Shown: one piece after another, positions 2,171 to 26,851 of the stretch
Layout of the letters: each line of letters begins with the position of its first letter
Position numbering within the stretch: position 1 is the first letter of the stretch
DNA from: an uncultured Patescibacteria group bacterium
GTDB lineage: Bacteria; Patescibacteriota; Microgenomatia; UBA1400; PJMF01
Length of the DNA: 64,000 nucleotides
NCBI GenBank assembly: GCA_905478415.1
Contig: CAJQIG010000002.1
Span: forward strand, 186,699-250,698
Direction: 5' to 3'
Translations under genes and position numbers: made by a program
The notes under the pieces: generated by a model
The model's database searches: none
The model's input: only the letters and a program-made list of their open reading frames with translations
What the model was told of the DNA's origin: nothing

Positions 2171-2232
2171 TGTGATATACTAGAACCTAGAATGTATAGA
2201 CGAAATAGAACCACGACCACCTCAACTATCAG

Positions 2233-2293
2233 CCCCATGTAGGGAAGAGAGGTTTCGTGTCAAAAAGCAGCTCTCCCACATGGGGGAGTTTTT
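2233..2293 (+). terminator. Rho-independent terminator
   Basis: CCCCATGTAGGGAAGAG pairs with CTCTCCCACATGGGG (about 15 bp with two A bulges), followed by GAGTTTTTATT. Confidence 0.6.
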
Positions 2294-2358
2294 ATTAGAC
2301 ACAAGTCTATTTTATTAATTGTTCAGAATGAACTATACTATCCAAGAAGGAATCACAC

Positions 2359-4143
2359 ATGTCAGACGCACATAACCACAATCACAACCACCTAGCAGAA
2401 CTCGAAGCTTTGGCTCAACTCCGTCACTCTGCCGCTCATTTACTTGCAGCCGCAGTACTCGAACTGTATCCTGATGCCAAACCAACTATTGGTCCAGCAA
2501 CTGATGATGGTTTTTATTACGATTTCGATTTTAGTGAGCCAATCTCAGAGAATGACTTACCTAAAATTGAGAAAAAAATGAAAGAGCTCGTCAAACATTG
2601 GCGAGAGTTTTCTCACCAAGTTGTAACTGCCGATGAAGCCCTAGAACTCTATAAAAAGAACGAATATAAGTCTGAACTTATTCGAGAATTTGCTGGAGAG
2701 AATAGAACACTCACACTCTACATGGCTGGCAATTTCACAGATCTTTGTCGAGGTGGGCACGTTGAGAGTCCTAAGAAAGAACTCAAATTTTTTAAGTTAC
2801 TCTCACTAGCTGGTGCCTATTGGCGTGGGAGCGAAGAGAACAAAATGTTGACTCGTATTTATGGAACTGCTTTCTTCAGCAAAGATGAACTCAAAGAAAA
2901 CCTGCAAATGCGAGAGGATGCAAAAGCTCGTGATCATCGAAAACTGGGTAAAGAACTAGGATTATTTGTCTTTTCGGATACTATTGGCAAAGGTCTGCCG
3001 CTTTGGACAGAAAAGGGGACAACAATCCGCCGAGAACTGGAACGCTTTATTACTGACGAAGAAATTCGTCGTGGTTATAAGCATGTGATGACTCCTGATA
3101 TTGCTAATCTTGATCTGTATCGAAAATCTGGTCACTATCCGTACTACAAGGATTCGATGTATGCGCCAATCAAAATTGAGGATGAAGAGTACATGCTTCG
3201 GCCAATGACCTGTCCACATCATTTTGAGTTATATTCTTCGGCTCCACATTCGTATCGAGAATTGCCAATGCGTATTGCCGAACTAGCTAAGTTGTACCGC
3301 TACGAGCGTTCTGGCGAACTATCTGGATTGATTCGTGTCAGAAGCTTCTGTTTAGCCGATTCTCACATCATCTGTAGCAAAGACCAAGCTAAGGCCGAAA
3401 TTAATGGTGTTCTGGACCTGATAGAGTATATTTCAAGTGTCTTTGGTCTCGAAAAAGGTAAAAACTATTCATATCGCTTGTCACTCGGTGATCGCTCAGA
3501 TGAAAAGAAGTACTTTAAGGATGACGCTTCGTGGGATTTTGCCGAAAAAGTGCTTCGTCAGGTTCTGATTGAGCGAGATGCTGTGTATGTTGAAGCCGAA
3601 GGAGAAGCTGCTTTCTACGGGCCAAAAATTGATGTGCAGATGCGTAATGTTAATGGAAAAGAAGACACAGCTTTTACGGTTCAGTACGACTTTGTTATGC
3701 CAAAGCGATTTGACCTTAAGTTTACAAATGAAGCTGGAGAGGAGGAGCAGCCAGTAGTGGTTCACAGATCTTCGATTGGTGCGATCGAGCGCAGTATTGC
3801 GTTTTTGATCGAACACTATGCCGGTAAGTTCCCGGTTTGGCTTTCGCCAACTCAGGTAAGCATCTTGCCAATTTCTGATAATTATTTGGAGTATGCCGAA
3901 GAAGTCAAAATTGCACTGGCTCGACACAATGTGCGCGTTCACCTTGATGACAGGTCGGAGCGACTCCAAGCCAAAATTCGCCATGCCCAGATGGAACAGA
4001 TTCCGTACATGCTGGTTGTCGGTGAAAAAGAAGTTGCCGATGGCACGGTGGCCGTGCGTCACCGAGACAAAAAAGAGCAGCAAGTGATGAAAATTGCCGA
4101 CTTTGTTTCCTTGGTAGTTTCTGAAATTGCTGAAAAGAAGTAA
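2359..4143 (+). CDS. thrS: Threonyl-tRNA synthetase, short form lacking the N-terminal TGS/N1 region
   Basis: 594-aa ORF. Contains the HSAAHLLA editing-domain motif, the RPMTCPHH zinc site, a class-II aaRS core and a C-terminal anticodon-binding domain (VSILPISD...). Confidence 0.97.
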   Translation: MSDAHNHNHNHLAELEALAQLRHSAAHLLAAAVLELYPDAKPTIGPATDDGFYYDFDFSEPISENDLPKIEKKMKELVKHWREFSHQVVTADEALELYKKNEYKSELIREFAGENRTLTLYMAGNFTDLCRGGHVESPKKELKFFKLLSLAGAYWRGSEENKMLTRIYGTAFFSKDELKENLQMREDAKARDHRKLGKELGLFVFSDTIGKGLPLWTEKGTTIRRELERFITDEEIRRGYKHVMTPDIANLDLYRKSGHYPYYKDSMYAPIKIEDEEYMLRPMTCPHHFELYSSAPHSYRELPMRIAELAKLYRYERSGELSGLIRVRSFCLADSHIICSKDQAKAEINGVLDLIEYISSVFGLEKGKNYSYRLSLGDRSDEKKYFKDDASWDFAEKVLRQVLIERDAVYVEAEGEAAFYGPKIDVQMRNVNGKEDTAFTVQYDFVMPKRFDLKFTNEAGEEEQPVVVHRSSIGAIERSIAFLIEHYAGKFPVWLSPTQVSILPISDNYLEYAEEVKIALARHNVRVHLDDRSERLQAKIRHAQMEQIPYMLVVGEKEVADGTVAVRHRDKKEQQVMKIADFVSLVVSEIAEKK

Positions 4144-4166
4144 CTTTTGTATAGAATTGAATAAAA

Positions 4167-4197
4167 AAGCCTCGACGCGCTGCGTCGGGGCTTTTTA
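4167..4197 (+). terminator. Rho-independent terminator of thrS
   Basis: AGCCTCGACGC pairs with GCGTCGGGGCT, followed by TTTTT, about 25 nt after the thrS stop codon. Confidence 0.8.
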
Positions 4198-4218
4198 CTG
4201 TGTACTACATAATTAAGA

Positions 4219-4249
4219 CAAAAAAACGCCAAGGTAGATCCTTGGCGTT
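4219..4249 (-). terminator. Rho-independent terminator of the minus-strand gene 4261..4584
   Basis: ACGCCAAGG pairs with CCTTGGCGT. The plus-strand A-run before it is a T-run on the minus strand. Confidence 0.75.
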
Positions 4250-4260
4250 TGACATACGTA

Positions 4261-4584
4261 TTATTGATAAAGTTGGCAGACGGCGACTTCGTCACCGATC
4301 TGCCAGGTGCAGACGCCAGTGACATCCTGGTCACTGGTCGAGACAACAAATTGTCTCAGGATAACTTCACCGTCACCGCTCGGTAGAACGGTTTTGTACA
4401 AAGTTACCGCGTTTTCAGAAACTGAAACTCCTGTTTCCTGCTCGAAGAATGTAGCAACTTGAGCCTTGTCAGGTTCGAGCTGACTGACTTGAGATAGAAT
4501 AACAACAGACCATATTCTGATTCCAATAAGAGCCAGTAGCAATACTACAATCAATCCAATCAAGAGGTCTCGTCGATTATACAT
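4261..4584 (-). CDS. Small N-terminally membrane-anchored protein, paralog 1 of a Cys-pair family
   Basis: N-terminal TM segment LLIGLIVVLLLALIGI. C-terminal TGVCTWQIGDEVAVC motif shared with the next two ORFs. Confidence 0.6.
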   Translation of the reverse strand: MYNRRDLLIGLIVVLLLALIGIRIWSVVILSQVSQLEPDKAQVATFFEQETGVSVSENAVTLYKTVLPSGDGEVILRQFVVSTSDQDVTGVCTWQIGDEVAVCQLYQ

Positions 4585-4748
4585 ATTTCTTCATCCCTTT
4601 ATCCAATTTTAAAAAAACTGGGTAAATAAATACGTTTATTAAAGAGTGGCTATTCCAACTTAAATTAAAATAATACAAGTTGAAACAACATCCTATATTA
4701 TATACAAAAATGACAAAAAGTCAAGTGAAATAAATAAAAATGACAGAG

Positions 4749-4780
4749 AAAAGCCCCAGCATGATTGCCGGGGCTTTTTA
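4749..4780. terminator. Hairpin terminator, possibly bidirectional
   Basis: AGCCCCAGC pairs with GCCGGGGCT, with T-runs on both strands. It lies directly after the stop of 4789..5211 (minus strand). Confidence 0.6.
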
Positions 4781-4788
4781 ACAAGTAA

Positions 4789-5211
4789 CTAATCATCGGT
4801 GGTACACACCATTTTTTCGCGGCGCGTACCCCAAATGCATGTACCAATAATTTTATTTCGACCTTCTACATGCACTTCGAAGTCCTGGGAACAGCTGTTG
4901 CCGCCGGTGATTTGGTGGCATGCTTGTTCTAGAAGCACAACGTTCTCAGGCTCGATACCATAATTGGTATACCTTGTCTCGTTACCTAGATAGGTAGCAA
5001 TCCTGGCTTCATTTGGCATTTGGCCAAAGTAGTTACTGACTGCGTTTGTGACAAAGAGTGTTCCTAGTAGGGCGGCCAAAATAATCGAAAGAATAAAGAG
5101 TCCAACGGCTAGATCTTGAACAAACCACTGCCAAATTTTTTGAATTTTGACTTGGCCTTTTTCAAGAGTCTTTAAAACTTTCAGTTTTAACTCATATTTT
5201 TTTTGTTTCAT
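4789..5211 (-). CDS. Small membrane-anchored protein, paralog 2 of the Cys-pair family
   Basis: TM segment LAVGLFILSIILAALLGTLFV. C-terminal IGTCIWGTRREKMVC motif. Its start overlaps the stop of the upstream paralog by 4 bp. Confidence 0.6.
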   Translation of the reverse strand: MKQKKYELKLKVLKTLEKGQVKIQKIWQWFVQDLAVGLFILSIILAALLGTLFVTNAVSNYFGQMPNEARIATYLGNETRYTNYGIEPENVVLLEQACHQITGGNSCSQDFEVHVEGRNKIIGTCIWGTRREKMVCTTDD

Positions 5212-5606
5212 GATTCCTCCAAAAAAGCTAGAACGCCAGGTTTCTGGCGTTGATTAAAATCGTCAATAAAGCACCTTGGAATCGCATAGCTTCCAGTAGT
5301 GCATACACCAGTTGAGTAAGTGTCATCGGTGAAGATGACGTCGAACTTGACTTGGCAGATTTTTTGAATAGTATTTTTTCCATCTAGTTTGCAGTGCCAG
5401 TCAGATTGAAAGGCAATATGTTTTACTAGAAGGGAAGGATTCTCTTCAATCTTTTCTAAATTCTCATTCAAAAGCAGTTCTGCTTGCTGTTCAGTCAGCG
5501 GATGGACTTCGACCAGGGTATACGATAGTAATCCTTGAAAAAGCATCCCAGTACAAAAGAGAATCAGAGCCCACATATGGGGCTCATATTTTTTGAAACG
5601 AGCCAC
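5208..5606 (-). CDS. Small membrane-anchored protein, paralog 3 of the Cys-pair family
   Basis: TM segment WALILFCTGMLFQGLL. C-terminal TGVCTTGSYAIPRC motif. ATGA overlap with the downstream paralog. Confidence 0.6.
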   Translation of the reverse strand: MARFKKYEPHMWALILFCTGMLFQGLLSYTLVEVHPLTEQQAELLLNENLEKIEENPSLLVKHIAFQSDWHCKLDGKNTIQKICQVKFDVIFTDDTYSTGVCTTGSYAIPRCFIDDFNQRQKPGVLAFLEES

Positions 5607-5776
5607 GAGGGCCTCCTTTTGTTTTTTTATAGTTACTTGTTAAAGAAAAACATTACAATTGGGTTGTGAAACACAACTGTAATGTCCTATATTATATATT
5701 AGGAATCATTTTTATTCAAGCAATGGCTTGGAAAAAGACCTATGGTACAATTTGTTTCGTAATTATTTGGAGTTTC

Positions 5777-6640
5777 ATGCAAGAAAATAAAAAAATACTT
5801 TCTATTGGTTCACTGGTTATCGATAGAATTAACGGTAAGAAAAGACCTGGTGGAGAGGCTACTAATGTAGCGGTCAATACACAACGGTTAGGAGTAGATG
5901 CTTCGTTGTTAACAGTTGCTGCGCGCAGCCCAGAGTCGGTTGTGTTGCAGGAGGAAATTGAGGCTTTGGGTGTTTCATTTTTTGCATTATCACAGGTTTT
6001 AGAAAAACTTCCAGAATGTCACATCTATATGGGTGCAGATGGGAAAGAAGAAGGATATGATTGGATTGATAATGGTTTAGAAAGTGCTTATGCAACTTCT
6101 GAAGTTCCTGTTTCACTTGTTCAAGCATACCAAACAGTTTATTTAGCAGCTTGTGAACCAGGATTCGCGTACCGTGTTTCTCAACAGGTGCAATCTCATC
6201 AAACTGTCGTTTTTAATCCTGGCACAAGAATATATGAAGATCCAGGCATGTTTATGCAGACACATAGGCAAAGCTCTATCACATTTATGAATCAATCGGA
6301 GTTCGATCATTTGCAGGTTAAAAAATATGTTAGGACAGAAGAGGATCTTTTATATTCTTCAGAACAGATGGTTATTATTACGGCTGGAAAAAATGGAGCT
6401 CGGTTAGTAACTAAAGAGGGCATAAAAAACTATCCAGCTCAGTTGGTGCCAGCTATTGATGAAACGGGAGCGGGTGACTCCTTTGCTTCTGCAGTGATTT
6501 GGGCTTTAGGTAGAGGTTTAGAAATGGATGCGGCAATGGTCTCAGCAAGCATACTAGCATCACTCGTTGTTCAAAGGGTTGGAGCGCAAATAGATGCAGA
6601 AACGGCTGCTCACTTTATACAGCAAATTGTGAATCAGTAG
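5777..6640 (+). CDS. PfkB-family (ribokinase-like) carbohydrate/nucleoside kinase
   Basis: DETGAGDSFASAV matches the PfkB signature DTxGAGDxF. N-terminus is ILSIGSLVID...GGEATNVAV. ATG 5777 is preferred over GTG 5666 because the longer N-terminus is hydrophobic and implausible. Confidence 0.8.
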   Translation: MQENKKILSIGSLVIDRINGKKRPGGEATNVAVNTQRLGVDASLLTVAARSPESVVLQEEIEALGVSFFALSQVLEKLPECHIYMGADGKEEGYDWIDNGLESAYATSEVPVSLVQAYQTVYLAACEPGFAYRVSQQVQSHQTVVFNPGTRIYEDPGMFMQTHRQSSITFMNQSEFDHLQVKKYVRTEEDLLYSSEQMVIITAGKNGARLVTKEGIKNYPAQLVPAIDETGAGDSFASAVIWALGRGLEMDAAMVSASILASLVVQRVGAQIDAETAAHFIQQIVNQ

Positions 6641-6655
6641 TTACTGGATCAAATT

Positions 6656-7423
6656 TTATGTTACGTGTAAGGGGTGTTCAATTGGTGTGTTAGCCAATAT
6701 TTCAATTACTTGTTGGTAAGTGTGATCAATGTTTCCGAACTTTGGTGTAATTATTTGAATGATTCCATTTTTTTCAAGCAAAGCACAATGAGCTTGATCA
6801 GCTTTTCCTTCAGCAACGCGGATGACTTGTTTTTCTGGAGAGTCTGTGGCTCGTTTTTGTAATGTTTTCTGAGTAAAATTTTCATCGGTGGGTACAACTC
6901 CAACCTTAATGGCTTGGGGAAGAAGGTATTCAACTTCACCTTCTATGCGGTTGGGAGGGGACTCCATAATGAGTTTTTTATTCGCTGCTAATAGTGAATA
7001 AATAATATCGATATCATATGCATAGGCATTACCATAGGCAGTCACAATTAAAAACAATTTTCCTGTTCCTTCCAGAATGTAGAGTTCATCATGAGATATT
7101 CCATATGAGCCTTTCTCGATTTCACCAGGTCTTATGGGTTGTCGAGTGGTGACGTATGGTGCTTCTTGGAAGCCAACTGTGTGTTCTAAAAAGGAGATCA
7201 AGGTGCCTTTTCCAGCTCCAGATGGGCCGGTAATGAGAATAACTTGATTACTTCTTTTTTGTATAAATGATATTTTTTCTTTGAGTTCAGTGGTTATTTT
7301 CTCAAGAGTTAGCATTTCAACTTGGTTGAGTAGCTGAGTGATAAAGTCAGGTCCAAGTGCTAAGAGTCTTTGATCAGTGAGGATATCTGCAGATTGTAGA
7401 GTAATAGGTTTTATTTCTTTCAT
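6656..7423 (-). CDS. Guanylate kinase-like P-loop protein with an N-terminal extension of about 60 aa
   Basis: GPSGAGKGT P-loop and TTRQPIRPGE...GNAYAYD resemble Gmk motifs (TTRxPRxGE...GNxYGT). Confidence 0.65.
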   Translation of the reverse strand: MKEIKPITLQSADILTDQRLLALGPDFITQLLNQVEMLTLEKITTELKEKISFIQKRSNQVILITGPSGAGKGTLISFLEHTVGFQEAPYVTTRQPIRPGEIEKGSYGISHDELYILEGTGKLFLIVTAYGNAYAYDIDIIYSLLAANKKLIMESPPNRIEGEVEYLLPQAIKVGVVPTDENFTQKTLQKRATDSPEKQVIRVAEGKADQAHCALLEKNGIIQIITPKFGNIDHTYQQVIEILANTPIEHPLHVT

Positions 7424-10844: not shown

Positions 10845-11561
10845 TTACACCTCAAAATCAACTTTAATCCCAGGACTCATGGTCGCAGAAAGAGTAGATT
10901 TAAGGACTTTTCCTTTAAGAGCAGTCATCAAAGCGTTGTAGTTTTCAACGAGTTCTTTTGTATCCATTGAAACTTTTCCAATGGTTACATGAATAACTGG
11001 TCGTTTCTTTTCTGTCTTAATGATCAGCTCACCTTTTTCAAGATCAGCCTTCTTCTGTTCTGGATTTGCAGTCACAGTACCGTTCTTTGGGTTTGGCATT
11101 AAGCCTCTTGGGCCCAAAACACGAGCGTGTTTGGCTATTTTAGGCATAAACTGTGGAGTCGTGATCAATGCATCAAAATCGATGTTGCCGGCTTCAATTT
11201 CAGCTAGGACAGCGTCATCAACGATAACTACTTTGAGTGATTTTCCAGTAGAGTGGGGAAGCGTAAGCTTGTTTTGGACTCCAGTTTCTCTGACAACTCC
11301 ATCAACAGTAATACTACCGTCGAATTTTGAGTATGAAAGTTTCTTGGTAAGTTCAATCGCAGAGAAAGCGTCGTAGATCTTGGTTTTATCGACCTGTGAA
11401 CGAGTTGCTACATACTTCTTGCTGCGAATTCGAGCAGCTTTTTTTTCTGCTTTTGGAGCAGCTGTTTCAGCATCGCTTTCTACAGCAGGTGCTTGTGTGT
11501 TTTCGACAATTTTGACCTCATCAGTGGTCGCGGACATGTCAACGTTTTTTTTCGATCCCAT
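10845..11561 (-). CDS. rplA: 50S ribosomal protein L1, with an N-terminal extension of about 45 aa
   Basis: GPRGLMPNPKNGTVT and overall L1 similarity. Located downstream of rplK. Confidence 0.95.
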   Translation of the reverse strand: MGSKKNVDMSATTDEVKIVENTQAPAVESDAETAAPKAEKKAARIRSKKYVATRSQVDKTKIYDAFSAIELTKKLSYSKFDGSITVDGVVRETGVQNKLTLPHSTGKSLKVVIVDDAVLAEIEAGNIDFDALITTPQFMPKIAKHARVLGPRGLMPNPKNGTVTANPEQKKADLEKGELIIKTEKKRPVIHVTIGKVSMDTKELVENYNALMTALKGKVLKSTLSATMSPGIKVDFEV

Positions 11562-11616
11562 GGTATCTCCTTAATTCCGTCAAAGCGGGGTATAAGTAAT
11601 TAATACTTTTCGTGCA

Positions 11617-11668
11617 TTGCACCTCTTTTATTCATCTGCTATCGCCAGGCTGAACAAAAGAGGTGCAA
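11617..11668 (-). promoter_or_regulatory. Perfect 13-bp stem-loop in the rplK-rplA intergenic region (candidate L1 autoregulatory/processing element)
   Basis: TTGCACCTCTTTT (11617-11629) pairs with AAAAGAGGTGCAA (11656-11668) around a 26-nt loop. No U-run follows on the coding (minus) strand. Confidence 0.35.
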
Positions 11669-11690
11669 GGTACTCTTTTTCTTCTTACAA

Positions 11691-12116
11691 TTACTCAGCA
11701 ATGGCAACACCCATACTTCGGGCTGCACCCTTGACTGAGTTCATAGCTGCTTCAACATCATTGGTGTTGAGGTCAGGTAGTTTTTCAGTAGCGATAGCTC
11801 GAACTTGATCCATTGTTAGGGTTCCCACTGAGTTGCGACCTGGAGTTTGACTTCCAGATTTGAGTTTGAGCACTTGCTTGATCATAGCTGATACTGGAGG
11901 TAGTTTGAGTTCGTATGTGAATGAACGGTCTGCATAGACAGTGATTTCAGCAGGAATAGTTTGACCTTTTTTGTCTTGAGTAGCAGCATTATACTGCTTC
12001 AAGAAGTCCATCATGTTGATTCCAGCTTGACCAAGAATAGGTCCCACTGGAGGAGCTGGAGTTGCGGTACCAGCTGGAAGATTAAGTTTGAGTTTGTTAA
12101 TTATTTTTTTTGCCAT
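11691..12116 (-). CDS. rplK: 50S ribosomal protein L11
   Basis: PAGTATPAPPVGPILGQAGINMMDF is a typical L11 N-domain. Located downstream of nusG. Confidence 0.97.
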   Translation of the reverse strand: MAKKIINKLKLNLPAGTATPAPPVGPILGQAGINMMDFLKQYNAATQDKKGQTIPAEITVYADRSFTYELKLPPVSAMIKQVLKLKSGSQTPGRNSVGTLTMDQVRAIATEKLPDLNTNDVEAAMNSVKGAARSMGVAIAE

Positions 12117-12136
12117 ACGTTGCTTTTATATTATTC

Positions 12137-12748
12137 TTATACTTTCTTTACTTGGAGGAAATCGAGGGTAACTGGAGTCTCACGACCGAAAATGTTAACC
12201 AGGACTTCGACTTGACCTTTTTCTTCATTAATTGCATTGACTGTTCCGAGGAAGTCGTTGAACGGACCATCGACAATGCGGACCGCTTCGCCTTCGACAT
12301 AATCTGCCTTGTATGAAGGAGCAGCTTGAGTCATGTACTTCATGATGGCTTTGACTTCATGCTTAGGAAGAGCAGTTGGTTTGTTACCAACTCCAACGAA
12401 ACCAGTGACTCCTTGAGTGGTGCGAACAGCTAACCAAGAATCATCTGTGAGTTCCATGTTAACTAACATGTACCCAGGGAAGATTTTTTCGCTGACAGTT
12501 TTTCGAGTTCCGCGTTTGATCTGAATTTTTTCTTGGGTTGGAATCAAAATTCCGAGAATTTTACCAGTTAAGTTCAAAGTTTCGACACGTTGCTTGAGGG
12601 CTTCAGCTACTTTGTTCTCGTGACCAGAGTAGGCGTGAACGACATACCAACGAGCCTTGCGGTTTTCGGCTTCCGAAACAACAATTAAGTTTGGGGTTTG
12701 CACCTTAACTTCTTGAACTTCTGGTGGTGTCATTGTTTGATCTGTCAT
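12137..12748 (-). CDS. nusG: Transcription termination/antitermination factor NusG
   Basis: ARWYVVHAYSGHENKV NGN domain and a C-terminal KOW domain (GEAVRIVDGPFNDFLGTV). secE-nusG-rplK-rplA synteny. Confidence 0.95.
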   Translation of the reverse strand: MTDQTMTPPEVQEVKVQTPNLIVVSEAENRKARWYVVHAYSGHENKVAEALKQRVETLNLTGKILGILIPTQEKIQIKRGTRKTVSEKIFPGYMLVNMELTDDSWLAVRTTQGVTGFVGVGNKPTALPKHEVKAIMKYMTQAAPSYKADYVEGEAVRIVDGPFNDFLGTVNAINEEKGQVEVLVNIFGRETPVTLDFLQVKKV

Positions 12749-12782: not shown

Positions 12783-12980
12783 TTATACCAATACAGCGAG
12801 TAATTTTGAGAAGATAAAATCTAATACTCCAATGTACAAACCAATTAAAATACTGACGCTGAGAACCAAGATTGTCTTTTCTTGTGTCTGTTCTCTTGAA
12901 GGCCAAGAAACCTTTTTGATTTCGCGGGTTACTTCCTTAAAGTACGTTGCAGGTTTGAACATAGGCAAGTATTGTAACAA
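12783..12980 (-). CDS. secE: Preprotein translocase subunit SecE
   Basis: 65 aa. FKEVTREIKKVSWPSREQT followed by a single TM segment. Immediately upstream of nusG. Confidence 0.9.
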   Translation of the reverse strand: MLQYLPMFKPATYFKEVTREIKKVSWPSREQTQEKTILVLSVSILIGLYIGVLDFIFSKLLAVLV

Positions 12981-13022: not shown

Positions 13023-14753
13023 TTATGATTTATTTGTTGGGACTGTGGGACCACTTGGTGGAGTAATACCCTTACTTTTTACTCGTTCCATCATGCTGGA
13101 GGCAGGTTTTGACTCAGTCGCACTTGCTTGAGCAGGAGCTTGTGTAGCAGCAACCTGTTTTTCCAATGTTGCTTGGGTTGGCATACTTGCGGTTGGTGTT
13201 GTCATGCTGCGAGCAGTGGTTAATGGAGTCTCGATGTTTTGTCGTTTCTCAATATCTTGGGGTGCTGCTGGCTTTGTTGCAGGCGTAACTGGTGTTCCAG
13301 AGCTTTTTTTATTGCCGAGGGCTTTCTTTATAAGTAGCACAATCAGCGCTAGTATAAAGAGTCCGATGCCAGCTCCAATAACAATCAGTGGCAAGGCCGA
13401 ATCTGGTGTGCTCATCATCTGACGAAGGAGGTCGAGAGCACTTTCATTCTCAGCCAATGGAATATTTTCAAGAGTATCTGCTTTTTCCATACCAGGAATG
13501 ACGTTCTCTTGCTCAGGCGTGGTCTCTGTAGTTTCTGTTGTGGCTTCTTCTGTTGCATCGGTGGTTGTTTCTGCAATTTCAGCAGGTTTTCCAGTGTTCT
13601 CTGATTGTGAGTCTGCGCCCTTAGGAGCACTGTAGGTAGTAGAAATAATTGCAACTGTTGAAGGAGTGCAGCTGGTACTACTGACGTTTGTTGCCAGGCG
13701 GCAAGCTCCTTGATAACAGCGAAGATTGATGTCACAGTCGTCATTTGTCGAACAAGCAGTGTTACAGCTTAACGCTAAGTTTTCTTCTTCTTCTGTAGTG
13801 AGCGCAGTACAAGCTGTGTCCTCTGTATTTTGTGGATCTCGGCATTTATTATTCCAGCAGAAGAGGCCATCTTGGCATTCATTAGTGGTGGCACAGCCTT
13901 GGTTACAAGAGTACTCTGGGCCAGATACTGTGGTACTACATTGGTTGTTTGTTGGATTAATGGCTAAGCGACAGACACTTTTTTCACCTAAATCGTAGCA
14001 GCGTTGGTTAATACCGCACTCATCATTACTTGAACAATTGTCATTACAACTGACAACTTCGATGCCCCCAACTGCAGGTGATGGAGAAGGTGACGGAGAG
14101 ACATCTGGTGATGCTGATGGAGAAGGAGAGGGGCTCACTTCTGGATCATCGCTTGGTTCTTCGTTAACAGTTAGGGTGAGTGAAGGCACGTGCTTGAGTT
14201 TGTCCTCGAGAGGATTGCTTCCGTGGAGAATAGAGATTGATTCTTCACGATCAAAGTTAAAAGTAATGGTCCCTGCTTGCGTAGGAATGAAGCTGACTCT
14301 TAGAAAGGCCGCTGGTTCAGCGGTGGTAAATGGTTGTCCAATTTGGGCAGGAAGAGCGAGCGCTTGCACTAGGAAGCCATCTTGCGTACGTTCAACTTGT
14401 GTACCTGCTGCTTGTAGACCAGTGCCAGTAATGACATCGGCAGTGAGCGTATCAAAACTGTCTGAGATAACGTTAAAGAGAACTTGGATTCCATCCGTGG
14501 GGACTGAGTGGGTAGTGACTTTGAAGACAACCTCAGTTTCTTGACCAACAGTAATCTTGGTTCCAGGGGTAACCGTGTTTGAAATTTCGACAACGCCGTT
14601 ATCGATTGATGCTTGTCTTCGAATATCTTGAGGGTTTTGCAGAGGGGCTTGCACAAGGAGCAGGCCGACAACACTAAAAGCTACCGTCAAAACAGCCAGC
14701 AGGACGCCAGTTGTTGATGGTTTTTGAAGAAATGATTTTGTTGTCTTTTTCAT
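13023..14753 (-). CDS. Surface protein: signal/TM segment, cohesin-like beta domain, PS-rich linker, three Cys-rich repeats, acidic T/E-rich region, C-terminal TM anchor
   Basis: N-terminal VLLAVLTVAFSVVGLLLV; SPSPSPSASPDVSPSPSPSP linker. Repeats SCNDNCSSNDECGINQRCY..., SCNQGCATTNECQDGLFCW..., SCNTACSTNDDCDINLRCY.... C-terminal LPLIVIGAGIGLFILALIVLLI. Confidence 0.7.
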   Translation of the reverse strand: MKKTTKSFLQKPSTTGVLLAVLTVAFSVVGLLLVQAPLQNPQDIRRQASIDNGVVEISNTVTPGTKITVGQETEVVFKVTTHSVPTDGIQVLFNVISDSFDTLTADVITGTGLQAAGTQVERTQDGFLVQALALPAQIGQPFTTAEPAAFLRVSFIPTQAGTITFNFDREESISILHGSNPLEDKLKHVPSLTLTVNEEPSDDPEVSPSPSPSASPDVSPSPSPSPAVGGIEVVSCNDNCSSNDECGINQRCYDLGEKSVCRLAINPTNNQCSTTVSGPEYSCNQGCATTNECQDGLFCWNNKCRDPQNTEDTACTALTTEEEENLALSCNTACSTNDDCDINLRCYQGACRLATNVSSTSCTPSTVAIISTTYSAPKGADSQSENTGKPAEIAETTTDATEEATTETTETTPEQENVIPGMEKADTLENIPLAENESALDLLRQMMSTPDSALPLIVIGAGIGLFILALIVLLIKKALGNKKSSGTPVTPATKPAAPQDIEKRQNIETPLTTARSMTTPTASMPTQATLEKQVAATQAPAQASATESKPASSMMERVKSKGITPPSGPTVPTNKS

Positions 14754-14768
14754 AGGTGCCGATACTCC

Positions 14769-15743
14769 TTATTGAGTTACTGTGAATTTTCCTGCCATGA
14801 TTGAGTAATCTTTAATGTCTACACTCGAGTCGCAGTTTATATCTGCGGTAAGCATACTATTCCGAGTTAAGAATTCTCGACTTAAAATAGCAAAGTCTCT
14901 CAGGTCCACTTTTCCATCCGTATTGAGGTCTGGATTGTTAGCACATTTTTTAGCATCAAAGGTGTGTTGGTGTTTATTGTTGTCGTAGTTTGTTTCTTGG
15001 ATGATGGTTTCTCCATGGGTATCAACAGTATCAATACTGAAGAGAAAACGGTTTCTTTCCTGAGCTACGAAAGATCCGGAAAGTTTAGTCATGTAGCCAT
15101 CTTGGTGAGCAGTGAGCATGTTGTAGAAGACAAGATCTCCCGTTTTGTTTCGATTTGATGTGAGTGATACAAAAAAACTTGGAAGTTGTTCAGTGGGACC
15201 TTTCACCAGGTTTTGTAGAGCTACATCGACGCTGAAATAGTAGGTTTTACCAGTCATGAGTTCAGATTCTGGGACTTCGTCAGTGAGAGCTTCATCAAAA
15301 AAGAAGGTTGGGGTATCGAGTTGAGTAGTATCAGTGAAGAAAATATCTTCAATTGGCTGGGTGCAAACAATAATGGGATCACAAGGAGCGGCAAAACACT
15401 CAACCTGTTGGTATCGACATCCAGGAGGAAGTTCGCAGATTCTACGGCTTGCACAACTGCCTTCAGTCAAAGCACCTTCTGTCTCAAGACACACATCTAG
15501 GTTTTGGCACGGTTCTATAACTTCATCTCTAGAAACGGCAACAGTTGCAGTACTAGCATCGGAGCGTACATCGACGGACTTATTTGATTGAAGATCCTGA
15601 AGTACAAAAAATGATCCGATAATACCAGCTACAACTAAGAAGATACTAAATCCAAACAACGCGCCACTGAGTCCATTAGAAAGTCGAGTCAGAGGAGAGT
15701 TCGATAAAGATGTAGTTTTGTGCATAAAAGGCAAACTAGGCAT
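14769..15743 (-). CDS. Membrane-anchored/secreted protein with a C-terminal type-I dockerin-like module
   Basis: TM segment ALFGFSIFLVVAGIIGSFFVL. Two dockerin-like Ca-binding repeats: DLNTDGKVDLRDFAILSREF and DINCDSSVDIKDYSIMAGKF. Confidence 0.7.
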   Translation of the reverse strand: MPSLPFMHKTTSLSNSPLTRLSNGLSGALFGFSIFLVVAGIIGSFFVLQDLQSNKSVDVRSDASTATVAVSRDEVIEPCQNLDVCLETEGALTEGSCASRRICELPPGCRYQQVECFAAPCDPIIVCTQPIEDIFFTDTTQLDTPTFFFDEALTDEVPESELMTGKTYYFSVDVALQNLVKGPTEQLPSFFVSLTSNRNKTGDLVFYNMLTAHQDGYMTKLSGSFVAQERNRFLFSIDTVDTHGETIIQETNYDNNKHQHTFDAKKCANNPDLNTDGKVDLRDFAILSREFLTRNSMLTADINCDSSVDIKDYSIMAGKFTVTQ

Positions 15744-15929: not shown

Positions 15930-16814
15930 ATGACCGAACATCCAGTTAGAAAAGCCATTATCACTGATGCTGGTTTTGCCAGCCGATATCTTCCCATTAC
16001 TAAATCAGTGCCAAAAGGTATGTTACCACTTGGGAACAAACCAATTATGCAGTTTATGGTTGAGGAATGCGCTGAAGCGGGGATCGAAGAGATTATCATT
16101 GTGGCTACCCCAGAAGGAAAGCCAGTCTACGAAGATTACTTCAACAACAGTGTCAACAGAATTCGTAAGCAGCTAGCTGCTCAAGGCAAAGAAGATCGAT
16201 ACGAACCGGTGCAACATGTGCTTAATTTTCCAAAAATTGTAGTGATTACTCAAGACGAGAGTTTGCCATATGGGAATGGTTCTCCAGTAGCTTCTGCTCA
16301 AAAATTTGTCGAAGGAGAAGAAGCCTTTTTAGTTATGTACAGTGATGATGTCCTGTTTGGCGATCAAGGTGATGCTAAGACAATGGTTGATTTGTACGAA
16401 GCCAATCCAGACGTAGCCGGCATTATTATGTCTCAGGCAGTCAGCCCTAAAGTGGTTGATAAATATGGAATTATCACCTTTAAAGATGGATCTGATACAG
16501 ATCTCGACTTTATTGTTGAGAAACCTGATAAAGGAACAGAACCATCTCTCTTAGCTTCGTATGGACGATATTTGTTAACTCCAGCAGTGTTGCAATATCT
16601 TGTTCCAACAAATACTGGTAAGGATAATGAACTCTGGACTGTAGATGCAATTACCCAGGTTTCAAAAACAAAACGAATTTTAGTTGGTAAGACAAAAGGT
16701 GAGTGGATGACCACCGGTGATCCTGAAAATTACTTCAAGGCCCACCTTAAGTTTGTGCTTAATAACGAGAAGTATGGTTCAAAGGTGTCAGAGTGGGTCA
16801 AAGAGTTGGCCTAG
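15930..16814 (+). CDS. Sugar-1-phosphate nucleotidylyltransferase, GalU-like with a degenerate GxGTR motif
   Basis: KAIITDAGFASRYLPITKSVPKGMLP compared with canonical AGxGTRFLPxTKxxPKEMLP. Paralog of 57809..58666. Confidence 0.7.
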   Translation: MTEHPVRKAIITDAGFASRYLPITKSVPKGMLPLGNKPIMQFMVEECAEAGIEEIIIVATPEGKPVYEDYFNNSVNRIRKQLAAQGKEDRYEPVQHVLNFPKIVVITQDESLPYGNGSPVASAQKFVEGEEAFLVMYSDDVLFGDQGDAKTMVDLYEANPDVAGIIMSQAVSPKVVDKYGIITFKDGSDTDLDFIVEKPDKGTEPSLLASYGRYLLTPAVLQYLVPTNTGKDNELWTVDAITQVSKTKRILVGKTKGEWMTTGDPENYFKAHLKFVLNNEKYGSKVSEWVKELA

Positions 16815-23497: not shown

Positions 23498-24115
23498 ATG
23501 AGTGAGAACCCCCTGGATAGGATAAAATATAGGCAGTTCCAAAACACCTTAGAGAACAGAGGTGGAAGCGAGACGATTATTCGTAGTATGTCTAACATAC
23601 TAAAAAAGATGGCGGAAAATAACGTTTCGACAGTATTTTTTCTTGATCGATCAGCAAGACCTTTGGCCTATTTAGCCAAGGAAATGTGGCAGGTTATGTA
23701 CCAGGGACGTGAATTTCCCGCGGTACGATTCATAAATATTGGAAAAGAGACGAGTCAAAAAGATATTAATCAATCTGGTGGAGTAGGTGATATCTATTCG
23801 ATTCCAGACGATGGCACTATAATGATTATTGACGAATTTGTGATGCATGGGCACTCTCTCAGGAGAGCCAAAGAGCTCTTAGATAAGTCTTTTCCTAATA
23901 GAGAATTTATTACCATTTCACCGTACTTACATGAATTTAGAGAGTTGCCGGCGATCTTCAAGGGTATTGAAGACAGGTCAGTTGAAGGTCCGATGAAGTT
24001 TGTTGCGCAGCCTCACTCAGATCAAAGTTCAGTTGAAGCACGAATAAAATTGAGGAAATACCTCAAGGAGTTTGTCAAAAATAATGCTGAAAAAATTAAG
24101 GAGACTACGGAGTGA
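23498..24115 (+). CDS. Phosphoribosyltransferase-like protein
   Basis: TIMIIDEFVMHGHSL resembles a PRPP-binding loop (hhhhDDhhxTGxT). Confidence 0.45.
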   Translation: MSENPLDRIKYRQFQNTLENRGGSETIIRSMSNILKKMAENNVSTVFFLDRSARPLAYLAKEMWQVMYQGREFPAVRFINIGKETSQKDINQSGGVGDIYSIPDDGTIMIIDEFVMHGHSLRRAKELLDKSFPNREFITISPYLHEFRELPAIFKGIEDRSVEGPMKFVAQPHSDQSSVEARIKLRKYLKEFVKNNAEKIKETTE

Positions 24116-24125
24116 CTAATTTTGC

Positions 24126-24155
24126 GGGGACTAGTGACGGATGTTCGAACCTATA
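24126..24155. repeat. Cassette-boundary repeat, copy A
   Basis: GGGGACTAGTGACGGATGTTCGAACCTATA. It abuts the stop codon of 24156..24419. Confidence 0.85.
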
Positions 24156-24419
24156 TCAGTATTGATCATGGTTTACTAAATCAAAAAAGATGTAAACATC
24201 ATCTTCTTTAATTGCCAATGCTCTCAAATCTCCTTTTATTCGAATAGCATACTGACTAGATCTTTCACCTTTTAATCTATGCAAACGCAACCCCATATGA
24301 TAGGGATTTTCTTTAAATTTTTTAAACTGTTTTCTAAAAATTTTATCCAAAAGAGGATTTTTATTCTTAAACTTTACTACTTTTCTCTTAAATGACTCTG
24401 TATAAACAACTTTTATCAT
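24156..24419 (-). CDS. RelE/ParE-superfamily type II toxin
   Basis: 87 aa. NPYHMGLRLHRLKGERSSQYAIRIKGDLRAL fits the RelE/ParE pattern. 4-bp overlap with the upstream antitoxin. Confidence 0.8.
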   Translation of the reverse strand: MIKVVYTESFKRKVVKFKNKNPLLDKIFRKQFKKFKENPYHMGLRLHRLKGERSSQYAIRIKGDLRALAIKEDDVYIFFDLVNHDQY

Positions 24420-24673
24420 AAAGAGTCAAAAAATTCATCAACATTAATCATTTCGTGGGTTTTTCCCAAACGATGCTCTTCCAAAGCCTTTAAGCCACTT
24501 TCTTCTGTTTTCTTACTCATTTTAAAAGTTGGAACTTCATTTTTCAAAATTTCTTCTGAGGCTTTACTTATAAAAAAACGAATAGTTTTGGGTAAATTAT
24601 ACCCAAATTGAGAACCATAATTTTTTAAAAGGGTAGCTTCTTGAGTTGTAAGAGTTAATTGAACTTTAGTCAT
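24416..24673 (-). CDS. Type II antitoxin (RHH-like)
   Basis: 85 aa. VQLTLTTQEATLLKNYGSQFGYNLPKTIRFFI is a beta-strand plus helices, RHH-like. Translationally coupled to the toxin. Confidence 0.7.
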   Translation of the reverse strand: MTKVQLTLTTQEATLLKNYGSQFGYNLPKTIRFFISKASEEILKNEVPTFKMSKKTEESGLKALEEHRLGKTHEMINVDEFFDSL

Positions 24674-24740
24674 ATGTATTAGTATTATATTATAAAATCA
24701 TTGTTTTGTAAATACTTTAATACTACTTTTGATATTTCTT

Positions 24741-24770
24741 GGGGATTAGTGAAGGATGTTCGAACCTATT
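24741..24770. repeat. Cassette-boundary repeat, copy B
   Basis: GGGGATTAGTGAAGGATGTTCGAACCTATT. It overlaps the stop codon of 24766..25044. Confidence 0.85.
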
Positions 24771-25044
24771 TGTACACCTGATCATGAGTTCCAAAACTAA
24801 AAAAAACAATTTTAGACATGTTTCCATCCTGATTATAGTAATAAAGTAATCGATGGGACATATCTACAGAAATACTCCAACTCTCTCTTTGACCTCCGCT
24901 CAATTTGTGGAGTCGTAATGACGGATGATTTTTGTTCTGTTCGAACAATACTAACTGCTTTTTAATTTTTGTGAATAACTGTGTATCGTTTTTTTTAACT
25001 CTTTGCAATTGCTTCAAACATTTTGGTGAAAACGCAATTTCCAT
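24766..25044 (-). CDS. RelE/ParE-superfamily type II toxin
   Basis: 92 aa. NKNHPSLRLHKLSGGQRESWSISVDMSHRLLY. Paralogous to 24156..24419. Confidence 0.8.
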   Translation of the reverse strand: MEIAFSPKCLKQLQRVKKNDTQLFTKIKKQLVLFEQNKNHPSLRLHKLSGGQRESWSISVDMSHRLLYYYNQDGNMSKIVFFSFGTHDQVYK

Positions 25045-25046
25045 TG

Positions 25047-25307
25047 CTATAGATCCTGGAGCAACTTGCCAACGTCATTAGTTTGGATTAAATCTCCAGT
25101 TTTTTCTGCCTCTACAGCCTCTTTAAGATCGTTAGTTGATTGACTGGACATTTCAAAAACAGGATAGTCAACGTCTTGAACATCATTTATCACTAAATTT
25201 CTGATGTAAGCTGATAAGCTAAGACCGTATTTATTAGCTTTAGTCTGCAAGTAACCTTGCAACTGGACTGGTAATGTAACTCTAATTTGAGTAGTTTGTG
25301 TTTGCAT
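25047..25307 (-). CDS. Type II antitoxin (ribbon-helix-helix)
   Basis: 86 aa. QIRVTLPVQLQGYLQTKANKYGLSLSAYIRNLV is a typical RHH. Ends 2 nt before the toxin start. Confidence 0.75.
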   Translation of the reverse strand: MQTQTTQIRVTLPVQLQGYLQTKANKYGLSLSAYIRNLVINDVQDVDYPVFEMSSQSTNDLKEAVEAEKTGDLIQTNDVGKLLQDL

Positions 25308-25371
25308 AAAGCCATTATAGTCTAATTAAAGCATTTATCAAGTACTAATCAAGGCTATTTTGTGTACTTTT

Positions 25372-25402
25372 CAGGGCCTAGTGAAAAATGTTGGAACCCA
25401 TA
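25372..25402. repeat. Cassette-boundary repeat, copy C (more divergent)
   Basis: AGGGCCTAGTGAAAAATGTTGGAACCCATAT. It lies 27 nt beyond the stop of 25430..26032. Confidence 0.75.
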
Positions 25403-25429
25403 TCAACTGTAAGTACATGACTTCATTTG

Positions 25430-26032
25430 CTATTTATCAAAAACAACAACAATGCCATCAATGCTTTTCTTAAATTCAGAACATCTTTGATCATTATATC
25501 TTTGGGTGATTTTATCCATTACTTTGGAATCAACCCCGTTAAATTCCCAAGAATCACTTAGCCTGCTGCTAAAAAATAATGTATCGAATTTAATGACAAT
25601 TTTAAGTGTTTTTAAACTATCAGGTGAAAGATTAAAAAACCAATGAATTAAATCATTAAAAGCAGCATGATGACAACCTTCTACAGGAGTTGTTTCCCCA
25701 CCCATTAACATTACTTCCAATAAACTTGCCCCATCTTTTGACAATAATGCCGTTAAGTCTTCGGGGTTGATAATATCATAGTCATGACCATATTTTTTTC
25801 GTCTTTCTAAAGCAATATTGGGATGATTGTTGAGATAGCTAGAGACAACATGTGGAGCATTTACATATAGACCCCAATGTGCATCTTTTGACTTAAAACC
25901 TGTTACACATATATTTAAATTATACCTTTGATCATCAAAAATTGCTTGCATAGCCTCTCGAGCAGGTTCTTTATAATAAACTTCTCTAATAGGGTGTATT
26001 GCTAAAGCAACGCTTAGATTTTCATTTAACAT
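25430..26032 (-). CDS. Hypothetical protein (single-gene cassette)
   Basis: 200-aa ORF with no recognisable motif. Confidence 0.5.
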   Translation of the reverse strand: MLNENLSVALAIHPIREVYYKEPAREAMQAIFDDQRYNLNICVTGFKSKDAHWGLYVNAPHVVSSYLNNHPNIALERRKKYGHDYDIINPEDLTALLSKDGASLLEVMLMGGETTPVEGCHHAAFNDLIHWFFNLSPDSLKTLKIVIKFDTLFFSSRLSDSWEFNGVDSKVMDKITQRYNDQRCSEFKKSIDGIVVVFDK

Positions 26033-26109
26033 ATTTACCTCTATTCTCTTCTAAAATATCTGTTTATATTTTTAATTCAGCATTCAGCAAACTTATATAA
26101 TAAATACAA

Positions 26110-26144
26110 GGGGCTTGTTACTTGAGGGATGTTCGAACCTATTT
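26110..26144. repeat. Cassette-boundary repeat, copy D (about 5-nt insertion in the left half)
   Basis: GGGGCTTGTTACTTGAGGGATGTTCGAACCTATTT. It lies 8 nt beyond the stop of 26153..26806. Confidence 0.8.
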
Positions 26145-26152
26145 TAAGCTCG

Positions 26153-26806: not shown

Positions 26807-26821
26807 ATATTGCTGTTTTGC

Positions 26822-26851
26822 AGGGATTAGTGAACTATGTTGGAACCTATT
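26822..26851. repeat. Cassette-boundary repeat, copy E
   Basis: AGGGATTAGTGAACTATGTTGGAACCTATT. It abuts the stop codon of 26852..27178. Confidence 0.85.

Follow-up and report, generated by a model that had tools for sequence, protein, structure and literature searches.

Pairs of cohesin and dockerin are familiar above all from cellulosomes, and to our knowledge little has been learned of what they do beyond cellulose degradation. The question raised by a stretch of 64,000 nucleotides from an uncultured Patescibacteria bacterium (here called the window) is whether two neighboring genes directly upstream of secE encode such a pair and, if so, what it would do at the cell surface. A sequence-only reading had described a 324-aa protein ending in two dockerin repeats beside a 576-aa protein starting with a cohesin-like domain, and had seen in them a minimal surface scaffold; the observation itself was confirmed, and the interpretation was partly supported. 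We propose, with a probability of roughly 0.6, that the 576-aa protein is a transmembrane (TM)-anchored single-cohesin surface scaffold of a Patescibacteria (Pacebacteria/Microgenomates-type) bacterium, with a cognate dockerin partner.

The two open reading frames (ORFs) lie 15 nt apart in the same frame of the minus strand, and their coordinates place them directly upstream of secE, as had been claimed:

10845..12748 (-): nusG (12137-12748), rplK (11691-12116) and rplA (10845-11561), from ORFs and the Pfam labels of orthologous genes
12783..12980 (-): secE, 42 nt downstream of the 576-aa gene, from the ORF and related loci
13023..14753 (-): gene of the 576-aa bitopic membrane protein with predicted cohesin fold and Cys modules, from the ORF, 68 homologues and their alignment
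14769..15743 (-): gene of the 324-aa dockerin-bearing protein, from the ORF, 8 close homologues (all with PF00404) and their alignment
15930..16814 (+): divergent NTP_transferase gene (PF00483, E=1.3e-27), a conserved upstream boundary kept in related loci

Promoter, terminator and Rfam scans of this neighborhood gave nothing informative besides tRNAs.

The C-terminus of the 324-aa protein is a genuine type I dockerin. It matched PF00404 (Dockerin_1) at aa 272-317 with an E value of 3.5e-7 and 30.8 bits, above the gathering score of 22.9, and among PDB sequences it matched the crystallized type I dockerins 4fl4_A (E=9.7e-5) and 2vn5_B (E=5e-4), so that the two repeats first noticed, and the HMM check proposed for them, were borne out. 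The same Pfam model was matched by all 8 close homologues. The whole protein is organized as follows:

15603..15659 (-): N-terminal TM helix or signal anchor, aa 29-47 (hydropathy of 2.46 over 19 aa)
15555..15578 (-): motif SVDVRSDA(S) next to the membrane, one version of the [SP]QD[IVL]Rx[QD]AS motif seen across the family
15363..15509 (-): eight-Cys region, aa 79-127, with 8/8 Cys invariant in 8 homologues
14955..15356 (-): "cargo" domain predicted to be rich in beta strands, aa 130-263
14778..14945 (-): type I dockerin, aa 267-322, with Ca loops DLNTDGKVDLRD and DINCDSSVDIKD, from Pfam, PDB matches and alignments

Read directly, the dockerin consists of two duplicated segments of loop plus helix, DLNTDGKVDLRD-FAILSREF and DINCDSSVDIKD-YSIMAGKF. 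We looked for a 12-residue EF-hand-like Ca loop (D1, N/D3, D5, D/N9, D12) followed by a helix, and both loops are intact, with the canonical D-x-N-x-D-x3-D-x2-D; their Asp/Asn positions are invariant among dockerin neighbors from 6 lineages (see below). The helices were predicted at aa 282-288 and 310-314, a low-confidence region of the model. The pair C267/C304, which could act as a clamp on the dockerin module, is found without exception in the 8 close homologues, and it recurs in some, not all, dockerin neighbors of other lineages. The start of the protein is probably M7 (position 15725), the shared first residue of all homologues. As for the cargo domain, it is probably an Ig-like sandwich and a Pfam search returned no match for it; a CARDB assignment, suggested by the motif "ETNYDNN", likewise found no support in Pfam.

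The 576-aa protein has the following parts:

14652..14708 (-): TM helix 1, aa 16-34, after the basic N-terminus MKKTTKSFLQK (hydropathy 2.74)
14607..14630 (-): conserved juxtamembrane motif QDIRRQAS, aa 42-49, from the alignment, model pLDDT and a motif survey
14154..14606 (-): domain of predicted cohesin fold, aa 50-200, modeled as a beta sandwich of nine strands
14055..14153 (-): linker rich in Ser and Pro, aa 201-233, evident from the sequence itself
13929..14054 (-): 6-Cys module 1, aa 234-275, from the alignment and Cys positions
13800..13913 (-): 6-Cys module 2, aa 281-318, from the alignment and Cys positions
13659..13772 (-): 6-Cys module 3, aa 328-365, from the alignment and Cys positions
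13398..13658 (-): Thr/Glu-rich low-complexity spacer, aa 366-452 (T16, E13 and A10 of 87 residues)
13329..13385 (-): TM helix 2, aa 457-475, followed by KKALGNKK (hydropathy 3.14)
13026..13319 (-): predicted cytoplasmic tail, aa 479-576 (about 100 aa), from the positive-inside rule and the alignment
13050..13106 (-): conserved C-terminal motif PASSMMERVKSKGITPPSG, from the alignment and a regex survey

The linker, the three tandem Cys-rich modules and the Thr/Glu-rich stretch were thus all found as first described. The modules share the spacing C-x3-C-x5-C-x5-C-x4/8-C-x10-C and contain all 18 cysteines of the protein, every one of them invariant across 24 homologues. Sequence HMMs of three knottin-like candidates (DUF7107, Dumpy DPY and the carboxypeptidase A inhibitor) were compared, and the 68 family members gave sub-threshold matches only: 18 to DUF7107, 17 to Dumpy_DPY and 13 to CarbpepA_inh, with best E values of 1e-4 to 3e-3. 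In module 2 of the window protein, Dumpy_DPY matched aa 287-307 with an E value of 0.0085 and 16.5 bits, below the cut-off of 27. What had been called a C-terminal TM anchor required revision, as TM helix 2 precedes a conserved tail of about 100 aa that is positively charged at its start and is therefore probably cytoplasmic; with this topology, which we infer, about 420 of the 576 residues would be extracellular. The tail ends in the conserved motif SSMMERVKSKGITPP, and the pattern S[ST]M[ML]xR[LVM]KxKG[IV] had 23 regex matches, all in this family and all C-terminal. At the other end, A48 and S49 of QDIRRQAS are invariant and Q42 and R45 near-invariant in the family alignment. In the model this motif stands outside the folded domain, the segment that holds it having a mean pLDDT of 54 for model residues 1-10 and of 73 for residues 11-20. 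Dockerin proteins and members of the cohesin-like family have in common a motif of the [SP]QD[IVL]Rx[QD]AS type. With 68 word-indexed homologues of the 576-aa protein and 566 clusters (at 50% identity) of its N-domain, these features of the locus are not a matter of chance.

The N-domain is predicted to have a cohesin fold. In the predicted structure it is a nine-stranded flattened beta sandwich (jelly roll) with cohesins as its nearest structural neighbors, about 4 Z units above every other fold class and at near full-length coverage. Sequence comparisons gave no such match. The Pfam Cohesin HMM (PF00963) found nothing at an E value of ≤10 in the 576-aa protein, nothing at ≤1 in 68 sequences (the N-domain of the window and 67 relatives) and nothing at ≤0.01 in 55 distant family members. 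The family profile met no cohesin at an E value of ≤10 among PDB sequences, and hhalign gave probabilities of <0.1% against both the CipA cohesin (1AOH) and a 7-sequence cohesin alignment, a profile that is shallow because a protein search with the CipA cohesin returned 11 close relatives only. The sequence-only reading had tied its cohesin-like domain to either an HMM or a structural match; the latter was found in the predicted fold, whereas the Cohesin HMM and profile searches were negative. The locus shows a predicted cohesin-fold family that the sequence models tried (Pfam-A and NCBIfam) leave undetected and that occurs widely within one branch of Patescibacteria. Within the domain, conservation is higher in strands 3, 5, 6 and 8 than in strands 1, 2, 4, 7 and 9 (2.56 versus 1.92 bits, p=5e-4); in cohesins, the dockerin-binding sheet is formed by strands 8-3-6-5.

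The conservation of the pair was followed through 35 non-redundant Patescibacteria loci, located with a full-length family alignment. A dockerin gene lies immediately upstream on the same strand in 23 of them, with gaps between the ORFs of -58 to +162 nt, and 11 hold the family protein with no adjacent dockerin gene (the twelfth locus without such a neighbor, L039, is truncated by the end of its contig and says nothing on this point). The side-by-side arrangement is accordingly conserved, although these 11 loci make secE, and not the dockerin gene, the strictly conserved partner. The upstream neighbors share the dockerin alone, and their lengths run from roughly 100 to roughly 600 aa (131, 322, 471 and 508 aa in the four whose genes were called). 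One of the cargoes is a pectate-lyase-like beta-helix, and most are unknown domains. Some neighbors (131-176 aa) have little beyond a TM helix and the dockerin, without cargo. Further dockerin genes of the related loci carry Zn-metallopeptidase and SASA esterase domains, and among the 27 dockerin-bearing proteins of these loci the only domains recognized were a beta-helix, a SASA esterase and metallopeptidases, with no cellulases. A shared dockerin with variable cargo is the pattern expected for interchangeable cargo on a common socket.

A different explanation of the same arrangement is that the N-domain, although shaped like a cohesin, serves as an adhesin or binding module for something other than the neighbor's dockerin (a host-cell or glycan ligand, or dockerins encoded elsewhere), the two genes being adjacent only as co-regulated envelope genes. 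We consider this unlikely. The lead of cohesins over other folds extends over nearly the full length of the domain, and the adjacency is far above background, the only dockerin match in the 64-kb window being the 324-aa neighbor. The distances of the two modules also co-vary more closely than those of domains in one chain: in a mirror-tree comparison of 20 paired loci, a crude statistic confounded by phylogeny, the correlation between cohesin-like and dockerin modules was 0.77, against 0.53 between the cohesin-like and Cys modules of a single chain and 0.67 and 0.59 with nusG, and the cohesin-dockerin partial r was 0.63 (permutation p=2e-4). Moreover, single chains with both cohesin-like and dockerin modules, scaffoldin-like in build, exist in L007, L033 and 6 of the 55 distant members. 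The cohesin-like domain therefore co-occurs with dockerins, in the same locus and in some cases in the same protein.

The position of the gene allows another view, in which the 576-aa protein would above all be a housekeeping part of the envelope that goes with the secE-nusG-rplKA operon (a stalk present in large amounts, an anchor of an S-layer, or a membrane protein of secretion that acts via its cytoplasmic C-terminal motif) and dockerin docking would be a lineage-specific accessory. In 33 of the 35 loci, secE follows within 400 nt downstream although the family diverges down to 27% identity, no terminator was predicted between the 576-aa gene and secE in the window, and in L040 and L042 the same slot holds shorter Cys-module proteins with no cohesin-like domain. 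The C-terminal motif, family-specific and strictly terminal, also speaks for this explanation. However, gene order beside a highly conserved operon can last without functional coupling, the absence of Pfam and NCBIfam matches leaves the protein with no resemblance to known Sec accessory factors, and its presumed extracellular residues are built as a display stalk. We regard it as rather improbable as the full account. It is compatible with a scaffold and does not exclude one.

A stalk domain of the CnaA/CLIPPER type, stabilized like those of pilins and fibrillar adhesins by an isopeptide bond within the molecule, is very improbable: CLIPPER domains are defined by a Lys-Asn pair and a catalytic Asp (PMC12617251), whereas the N-domain (aa 36-205) has no Lys at invariant or near-invariant positions, so that the Lys of a Lys-Asn/Asp bond with its catalytic Asp/Glu is missing, the 576-aa protein has no Pfam DUF11 or Cna match, and cohesins score higher with more residues aligned.

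Under the scaffold reading that we prefer, the basic N-terminus and TM helix 1 would insert the chain in the membrane. Outside it would stand the cohesin-fold domain, the Ser/Pro linker, the three 6-Cys modules, knotted by disulfides into a stalk, and the Thr/Glu-rich spacer, and TM helix 2 would take the chain back into the cytoplasm, where the tail with its family-specific terminal motif may have a role of its own. The upstream gene is probably co-transcribed, and co-transcription may extend to secE; its product would be secreted or N-terminally anchored and would combine the eight-Cys region, the Ig-like beta domain and the C-terminal Ca-binding type I dockerin. This dockerin would bind the cohesin-fold domain, with the 8-3-6-5 sheet as its most likely site, and so tether its cargo at the cell surface, other lineages presenting other cargoes on the same socket. 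The pairing, kept beside secE in many related genomes, would point to a minimal plug-and-socket arrangement by which proteins become attached at the surface. As the cohesin-like domain is only about 15 residues from TM helix 1, the socket would sit at the membrane and not at the tip of the stalk, unless this helix is cleaved off; that the 20-residue hydrophobic segment is more anchor-like than signal peptide-like counts against the scaffold, as do the negative sequence comparisons with cohesins, the 11 loci with no adjacent dockerin gene and the neighbors with no cargo.

A more far-reaching version, which we offer as speculation and consider doubtful, is that of a lineage-wide, constitutive "docking post," in which a sequence-orphan branch of the cohesin fold within the secE-nusG-ribosomal operon captures dockerin-tagged proteins, perhaps polymerizes via chains with both modules into a surface lattice or host-attachment structure, and couples assembly to the secretion or processing machinery via the C-terminal motif and QDxRxQAS. 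If this were true, cohesin-dockerin plugs would be a core principle of envelope building in episymbiont-like bacteria and not a cellulosome accessory.

Under either version, a predicted cohesin-fold family is joined to a membrane anchor and a cytoplasmic tail inside one of the most conserved operons of bacteria. Should the two proteins bind, they would provide a simple model for the assembly and exchange of surface proteins (adhesins, hydrolases) in ultra-small host-dependent bacteria, extend cohesin annotation to hundreds of "hypothetical" proteins and offer protein engineers a small, orthogonal plug-and-socket pair. A literature search found no account of the secE-linked locus or of the cohesin-like family. 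A Patescibacteria protein that is comparable by description is SEML1_0315 of the saccharibacterium Southlakia epibionticum, reported as an essential dockerin-domain protein of the cell envelope for which host-glycan targeting was speculated (PMC10633639). Both are dockerin-bearing cell-envelope proteins, although SEML1_0315 comes from another class of Patescibacteria and has no cohesin partner described (PMC10633639). That such a protein is essential in a cultivated saccharibacterium suggests that this biology may matter for the epibiotic lifestyle.

The dockerin of the 324-aa protein is itself close to known type I dockerins (PF00404), passing the threshold with its Ca loops and duplicated segment and matching the GH9, Cel5A and CelS dockerins of PDB, and differs from them by C267/C304, the N-terminal TM helix and the lineage-specific juxtamembrane motif of its protein. 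For the 576-aa protein, close known systems are the single-cohesin anchoring scaffoldins OlpA and OlpC of Clostridium thermocellum and ScaE of Ruminococcus flavefaciens. Scaffoldins of these types use SLH repeats or sortase for anchoring. Here, a TM helix with a conserved cytoplasmic tail would serve as the anchor, the stalk is made of 6-Cys modules, and PF00963 similarity is undetectable. Searches of the 576-aa protein gave no Pfam or NCBIfam match and no SLH or other anchor domain, LPxTG-like signals being confined to related Cys-module proteins without the cohesin-like domain (P0063-P0066). Neither the SLH/LPXTG anchor nor the plant-cell-wall-degrading partner enzymes of cellulosomal scaffoldins were found, and in place of a cellulosomal enzyme context there is a cargo that is probably Ig-like and has no Pfam match. 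Among non-cellulosomal pairs, the Clostridium perfringens toxin complexes of GH33 NanJ and GH84 NagJ/NagH and the Archaeoglobus fulgidus cohesin 2xdh have cohesins that are recognizable by sequence and lie within soluble multi-domain enzymes. Unlike these, the domain described here is a sequence orphan, always N-terminal beside a TM helix, part of a bitopic protein and held in fixed synteny with secE.

Both genes were found on the minus strand exactly where the sequence-only reading had placed them, as a side-by-side pair directly upstream of secE. The two ORFs are in the same frame with 15 nt between them, and nusG, rplK and rplA come after secE on the same strand.

Features of the locus (window coordinates)
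12783-12980, minus strand: secE, 42 nt downstream of the 576-aa ORF
13023-14753, minus strand: 576-aa ORF
14769-15743, minus strand: 324-aa ORF
15930-16814, divergent, upstream of the pair: NTP_transferase gene (Pfam E = 1.3e-27)

A pattern scan predicted no intrinsic terminator between the 324-aa and 576-aa genes or before secE, which makes co-transcription plausible, and an Rfam scan of the window from 9.5 to 18.5 kb returned three tRNAs and nothing else. The 324-aa gene probably starts at 15725 instead of 15743, since all its homologues (eight close ones and no more in a word-indexed database) begin at the Met equivalent to M7. Elsewhere in the window, a low-GC stretch (24000-28000; GC of 0.32 to 0.35 versus about 0.42, with reversed GC skew) adjoining tRNA-Trp (27623-27694, minus strand) looks like a small accessory island, with a YafQ-like toxin, a class I methyltransferase, DUF1905 and a YCII-like gene. 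The organism is also contained in SOLA marine metagenomes, in contigs of up to 658 kb.

The dockerin proposed for the end of the 324-aa protein, the single one found in the 64-kb window, was confirmed. Pfam Dockerin_1 matched aa 272-317 with 30.8 bits (cut-off, 22.9), the loops DLNTDGKVDLRD and DINCDSSVDIKD have Asp/Asn at the canonical ligand positions, and crystallised type I dockerins were matched as well (4fl4_A, E = 9.7e-5; 2vn5_B, E = 5e-4; CelS 1daq, E = 8.6e-4). Two cysteines flank it, C267 (14943-14945) just ahead of loop 1 and C304 (14832-14834) within loop 2 (DINCD); invariant in 8/8 close homologues and also present in the neighbours of the related loci L001, L003 and L007, they could clamp the dockerin through a disulfide bond. 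The cargo is probably an Ig-like domain.

Other features of the 324-aa protein
aa 29-47: N-terminal hydrophobic helix
window 15555-15578: short conserved motif SVDVRSDAS
aa 79-127: eight-Cys region
aa 130-263: beta-rich domain, no Pfam match

The 576-aa protein belongs to a well-populated family (68 matches) labelled "hypothetical," whose architecture was constant across 24 aligned homologues.

Features of the 576-aa protein
aa 16-34: TM1, with a basic N terminus
aa 42-49 (window 14607-14630): juxtamembrane motif QDxRxQAS
aa 50-200: beta domain (N-domain)
aa 201-233: S/P linker
aa 234-275, 281-318 and 328-365: three 6-Cys modules
aa 366-452: T/E-rich spacer
aa 457-475: TM2
aa 479-576: variable Pro-rich tail
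within aa 550-568 (window 13050-13106): conserved terminal motif SSMMERLKxKGITPP

The Cys-rich modules, linker and T/E-rich stretch described from the sequence were all present, with all 18 Cys invariant in the 24 homologues; the TM anchor exists too but is not C-terminal, as the tail extends beyond it. By the positive-inside rule, the positively charged residues that follow TM2 and precede TM1 suggest that both termini are cytoplasmic, leaving ~420 residues between the helices outside. In all the fetched DNA, matches to the terminal motif S[ST]M[ML]xR[LVM]KxKG[IV]TPP belonged to this family (23/23), always at the very C terminus and predicted to be cytoplasmic.

Members of the cohesin-like family, several of the dockerin neighbours and at least one further ORF have the juxtamembrane motif, in the general form [SP]QD[IVL]Rx[QD]AS, 5 to 10 residues past the N-terminal hydrophobic helix (window 14607-14630 and 15555-15578; L001, L007, L010, L013, L014 and L032:11808-12179). 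Its presence in both groups of proteins and its disorder in the AF2 model point to a possible signal for processing or sorting that is specific to the lineage. If TM1 and QDxRxQAS stay uncleaved, the socket would be at the membrane, not atop the stalk.

The 6-Cys modules gave only subthreshold matches to the DUF7107, Dumpy DPY and carboxypeptidase-A-inhibitor models, and we describe them as knottin-like disulfide modules assigned to no family. They also appear without the cohesin-like domain, both in the related proteins P0063 to P0066, whose C termini combine LPxTG-like sortase signals (LPETG, LPASG) with a hydrophobic tail, and in shorter proteins occupying the same slot upstream of secE (L040:5893-6612 and L042:80-961). 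Eleven family members matched the Pfam CARDB model, and in P0047 an additional segment (precomputed PF07705) separates the cohesin-like domain from the Cys modules. Inserted modules seem to be tolerated in the stalk.

Whether the beta domain is a cohesin, which the sequence-only reading suggested from its pattern, depends on fold versus sequence. Pfam Cohesin found no match in the 576-aa protein (E ≤ 10), in the 68 sequences of the N-domain alignment (E ≤ 1) or in 55 distant family members (E ≤ 0.01), and the family profile found no cohesin among PDB sequences. With hhalign, the probability was <0.1% against both the CipA cohesin (sequence checked against 1AOH) and a shallow seven-sequence cohesin alignment. 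The AF2 model built from the 68-sequence alignment, however, was all-beta with high confidence (pLDDT 92.5, pTM 0.85), and Foldseek independently ranked cohesins at the top (2vo8, E = 1e-6, TM 0.72). The domain is therefore a cohesin by predicted fold, not by sequence, in a family outside Pfam Cohesin that probably works like one. The alternative of a CLIPPER/isopeptide domain fails its defining test, as the N-domain lacks a conserved Lys. Canonical cohesins bind dockerins with the 8-3-6-5 sheet; model strands 3, 5, 6 and 8, their sheet membership assumed from canonical cohesins, were more conserved than strands 1, 2, 4, 7 and 9 (2.56 versus 1.92 bits; Mann-Whitney P = 5e-4).

To compare gene neighbourhoods, we analysed loci from seven homologue look-ups together with 34 loci obtained by scanning GTDB species representatives, annotated with local HMMs (cohesin-like domain, dockerin) and phmmer (Cys-module region, secE, nusG, NTP_transferase). 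After de-duplication, a gene combining the cohesin-like domain with Cys modules was present in 35. Of these, 33 have secE ≤400 nt downstream, and 23 have a same-strand dockerin-bearing gene as the immediate upstream neighbour; in another 11, lacking it, the divergent NTP_transferase gene abuts directly, while L039 ends at a contig edge and carries no upstream information. Pfam Dockerin_1 was confirmed in 22 of the 27 dockerin-model-positive proteins, which have the dockerin alone in common and vary in length between about 100 and about 600 aa; the four immediate neighbours with called genes measure 131, 322, 471 and 508 aa. Outside the dockerin, the proteins were mostly without known domains, with a pectate-lyase-like beta-helix, a SASA carbohydrate esterase and Zn-metallopeptidases also seen, and some neighbours were cargo-less (TM plus dockerin only). 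L032 (4083-11773) has four dockerin-bearing genes around the family gene, one with a SASA sialate O-acetylesterase-type domain, and no secE within the fetched 12-kb locus, which reaches about 4.6 kb downstream. In L044, an ENA record of the window's organism, secE is uncalled and a 99-aa antisense ORF is annotated instead (2623-2922). Record titles from the GTDB scan include Patescibacteria, Pacebacteria, Paceibacterota and Microgenomates. Titles reading "(uncultured) Pseudomonadales bacterium," mostly TPA assemblies (L010-L013, L016, L018, L023-L025, L028-L029, L038-L039, L043), look like taxonomic mislabels, since these records carry the Patescibacteria-type locus in its typical gene order.

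In a mirror-tree comparison over 20 paired loci, cohesin-like and dockerin distances correlated at r = 0.77 (Spearman 0.46), against 0.53 (Spearman 0.15) for the cohesin-like domain paired with the same chain's Cys modules, 0.60 for dockerin and Cys modules, and 0.67 and 0.59 for cohesin-like domain and dockerin, respectively, with nusG. Controlling for nusG left a partial correlation of 0.63 (permutation P = 2e-4). Since partial Mantel tests are liberal for sequences with a common phylogeny, the covariation is no more than suggestive.

The N-domain profile, used in an exhaustive HMMER search, matched 566 clusters at 50% identity, 308 of them with E ≤ 1e-10. In the 150 best matches listed, the domain lay at residues about 5-250, right behind an N-terminal hydrophobic helix. 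Among 55 diverse members, 6 chains also contained a Pfam dockerin, and others contained PKD, TSP_3, CBM_2 or CARDB. The upstream protein combines cohesin-like domain and dockerin in both L007 (3571-4995, one chain) and L033, where three tandem cohesin-like genes precede secE (1486-7020; 537, 343 and 963 aa, the second with a C-terminal dockerin, the third with Cys modules). Head-to-tail assemblies are possible.

The original idea of a cognate pair is largely right: the feature itself, the dockerin and, by prediction, the cohesin fold stand, the proposed Pfam Cohesin check was negative, and the "C-terminal" anchor falls. We favour, with a probability of roughly 0.6, a TM-anchored single-cohesin surface scaffold that is the putative receiver of its co-encoded neighbour's dockerin. 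The dockerin of the 324-aa protein would dock into the cohesin-fold domain, and in other lineages the same scaffold would take other dockerin-tagged cargo, hydrolases among it. Neither the family nor the locus turned up in full-text literature searches; the closest relevant paper (PMC10633639) describes an envelope protein with a dockerin domain that is essential in the saccharibacterium Southlakia. Functionally, the 576-aa protein resembles the single-cohesin anchoring proteins OlpA, OlpC and ScaE, while its N-domain is structurally closest to the noncellulosomal cohesins of C. perfringens toxins and of A. fulgidus. What sets the 576-aa protein apart from all of these is the lack of detectable similarity to PF00963 at the sequence level, together with a strictly N-terminal cohesin-like domain, a Cys-module stalk, a predicted membrane anchor whose cytoplasmic tail is conserved and a fixed synteny with secE.
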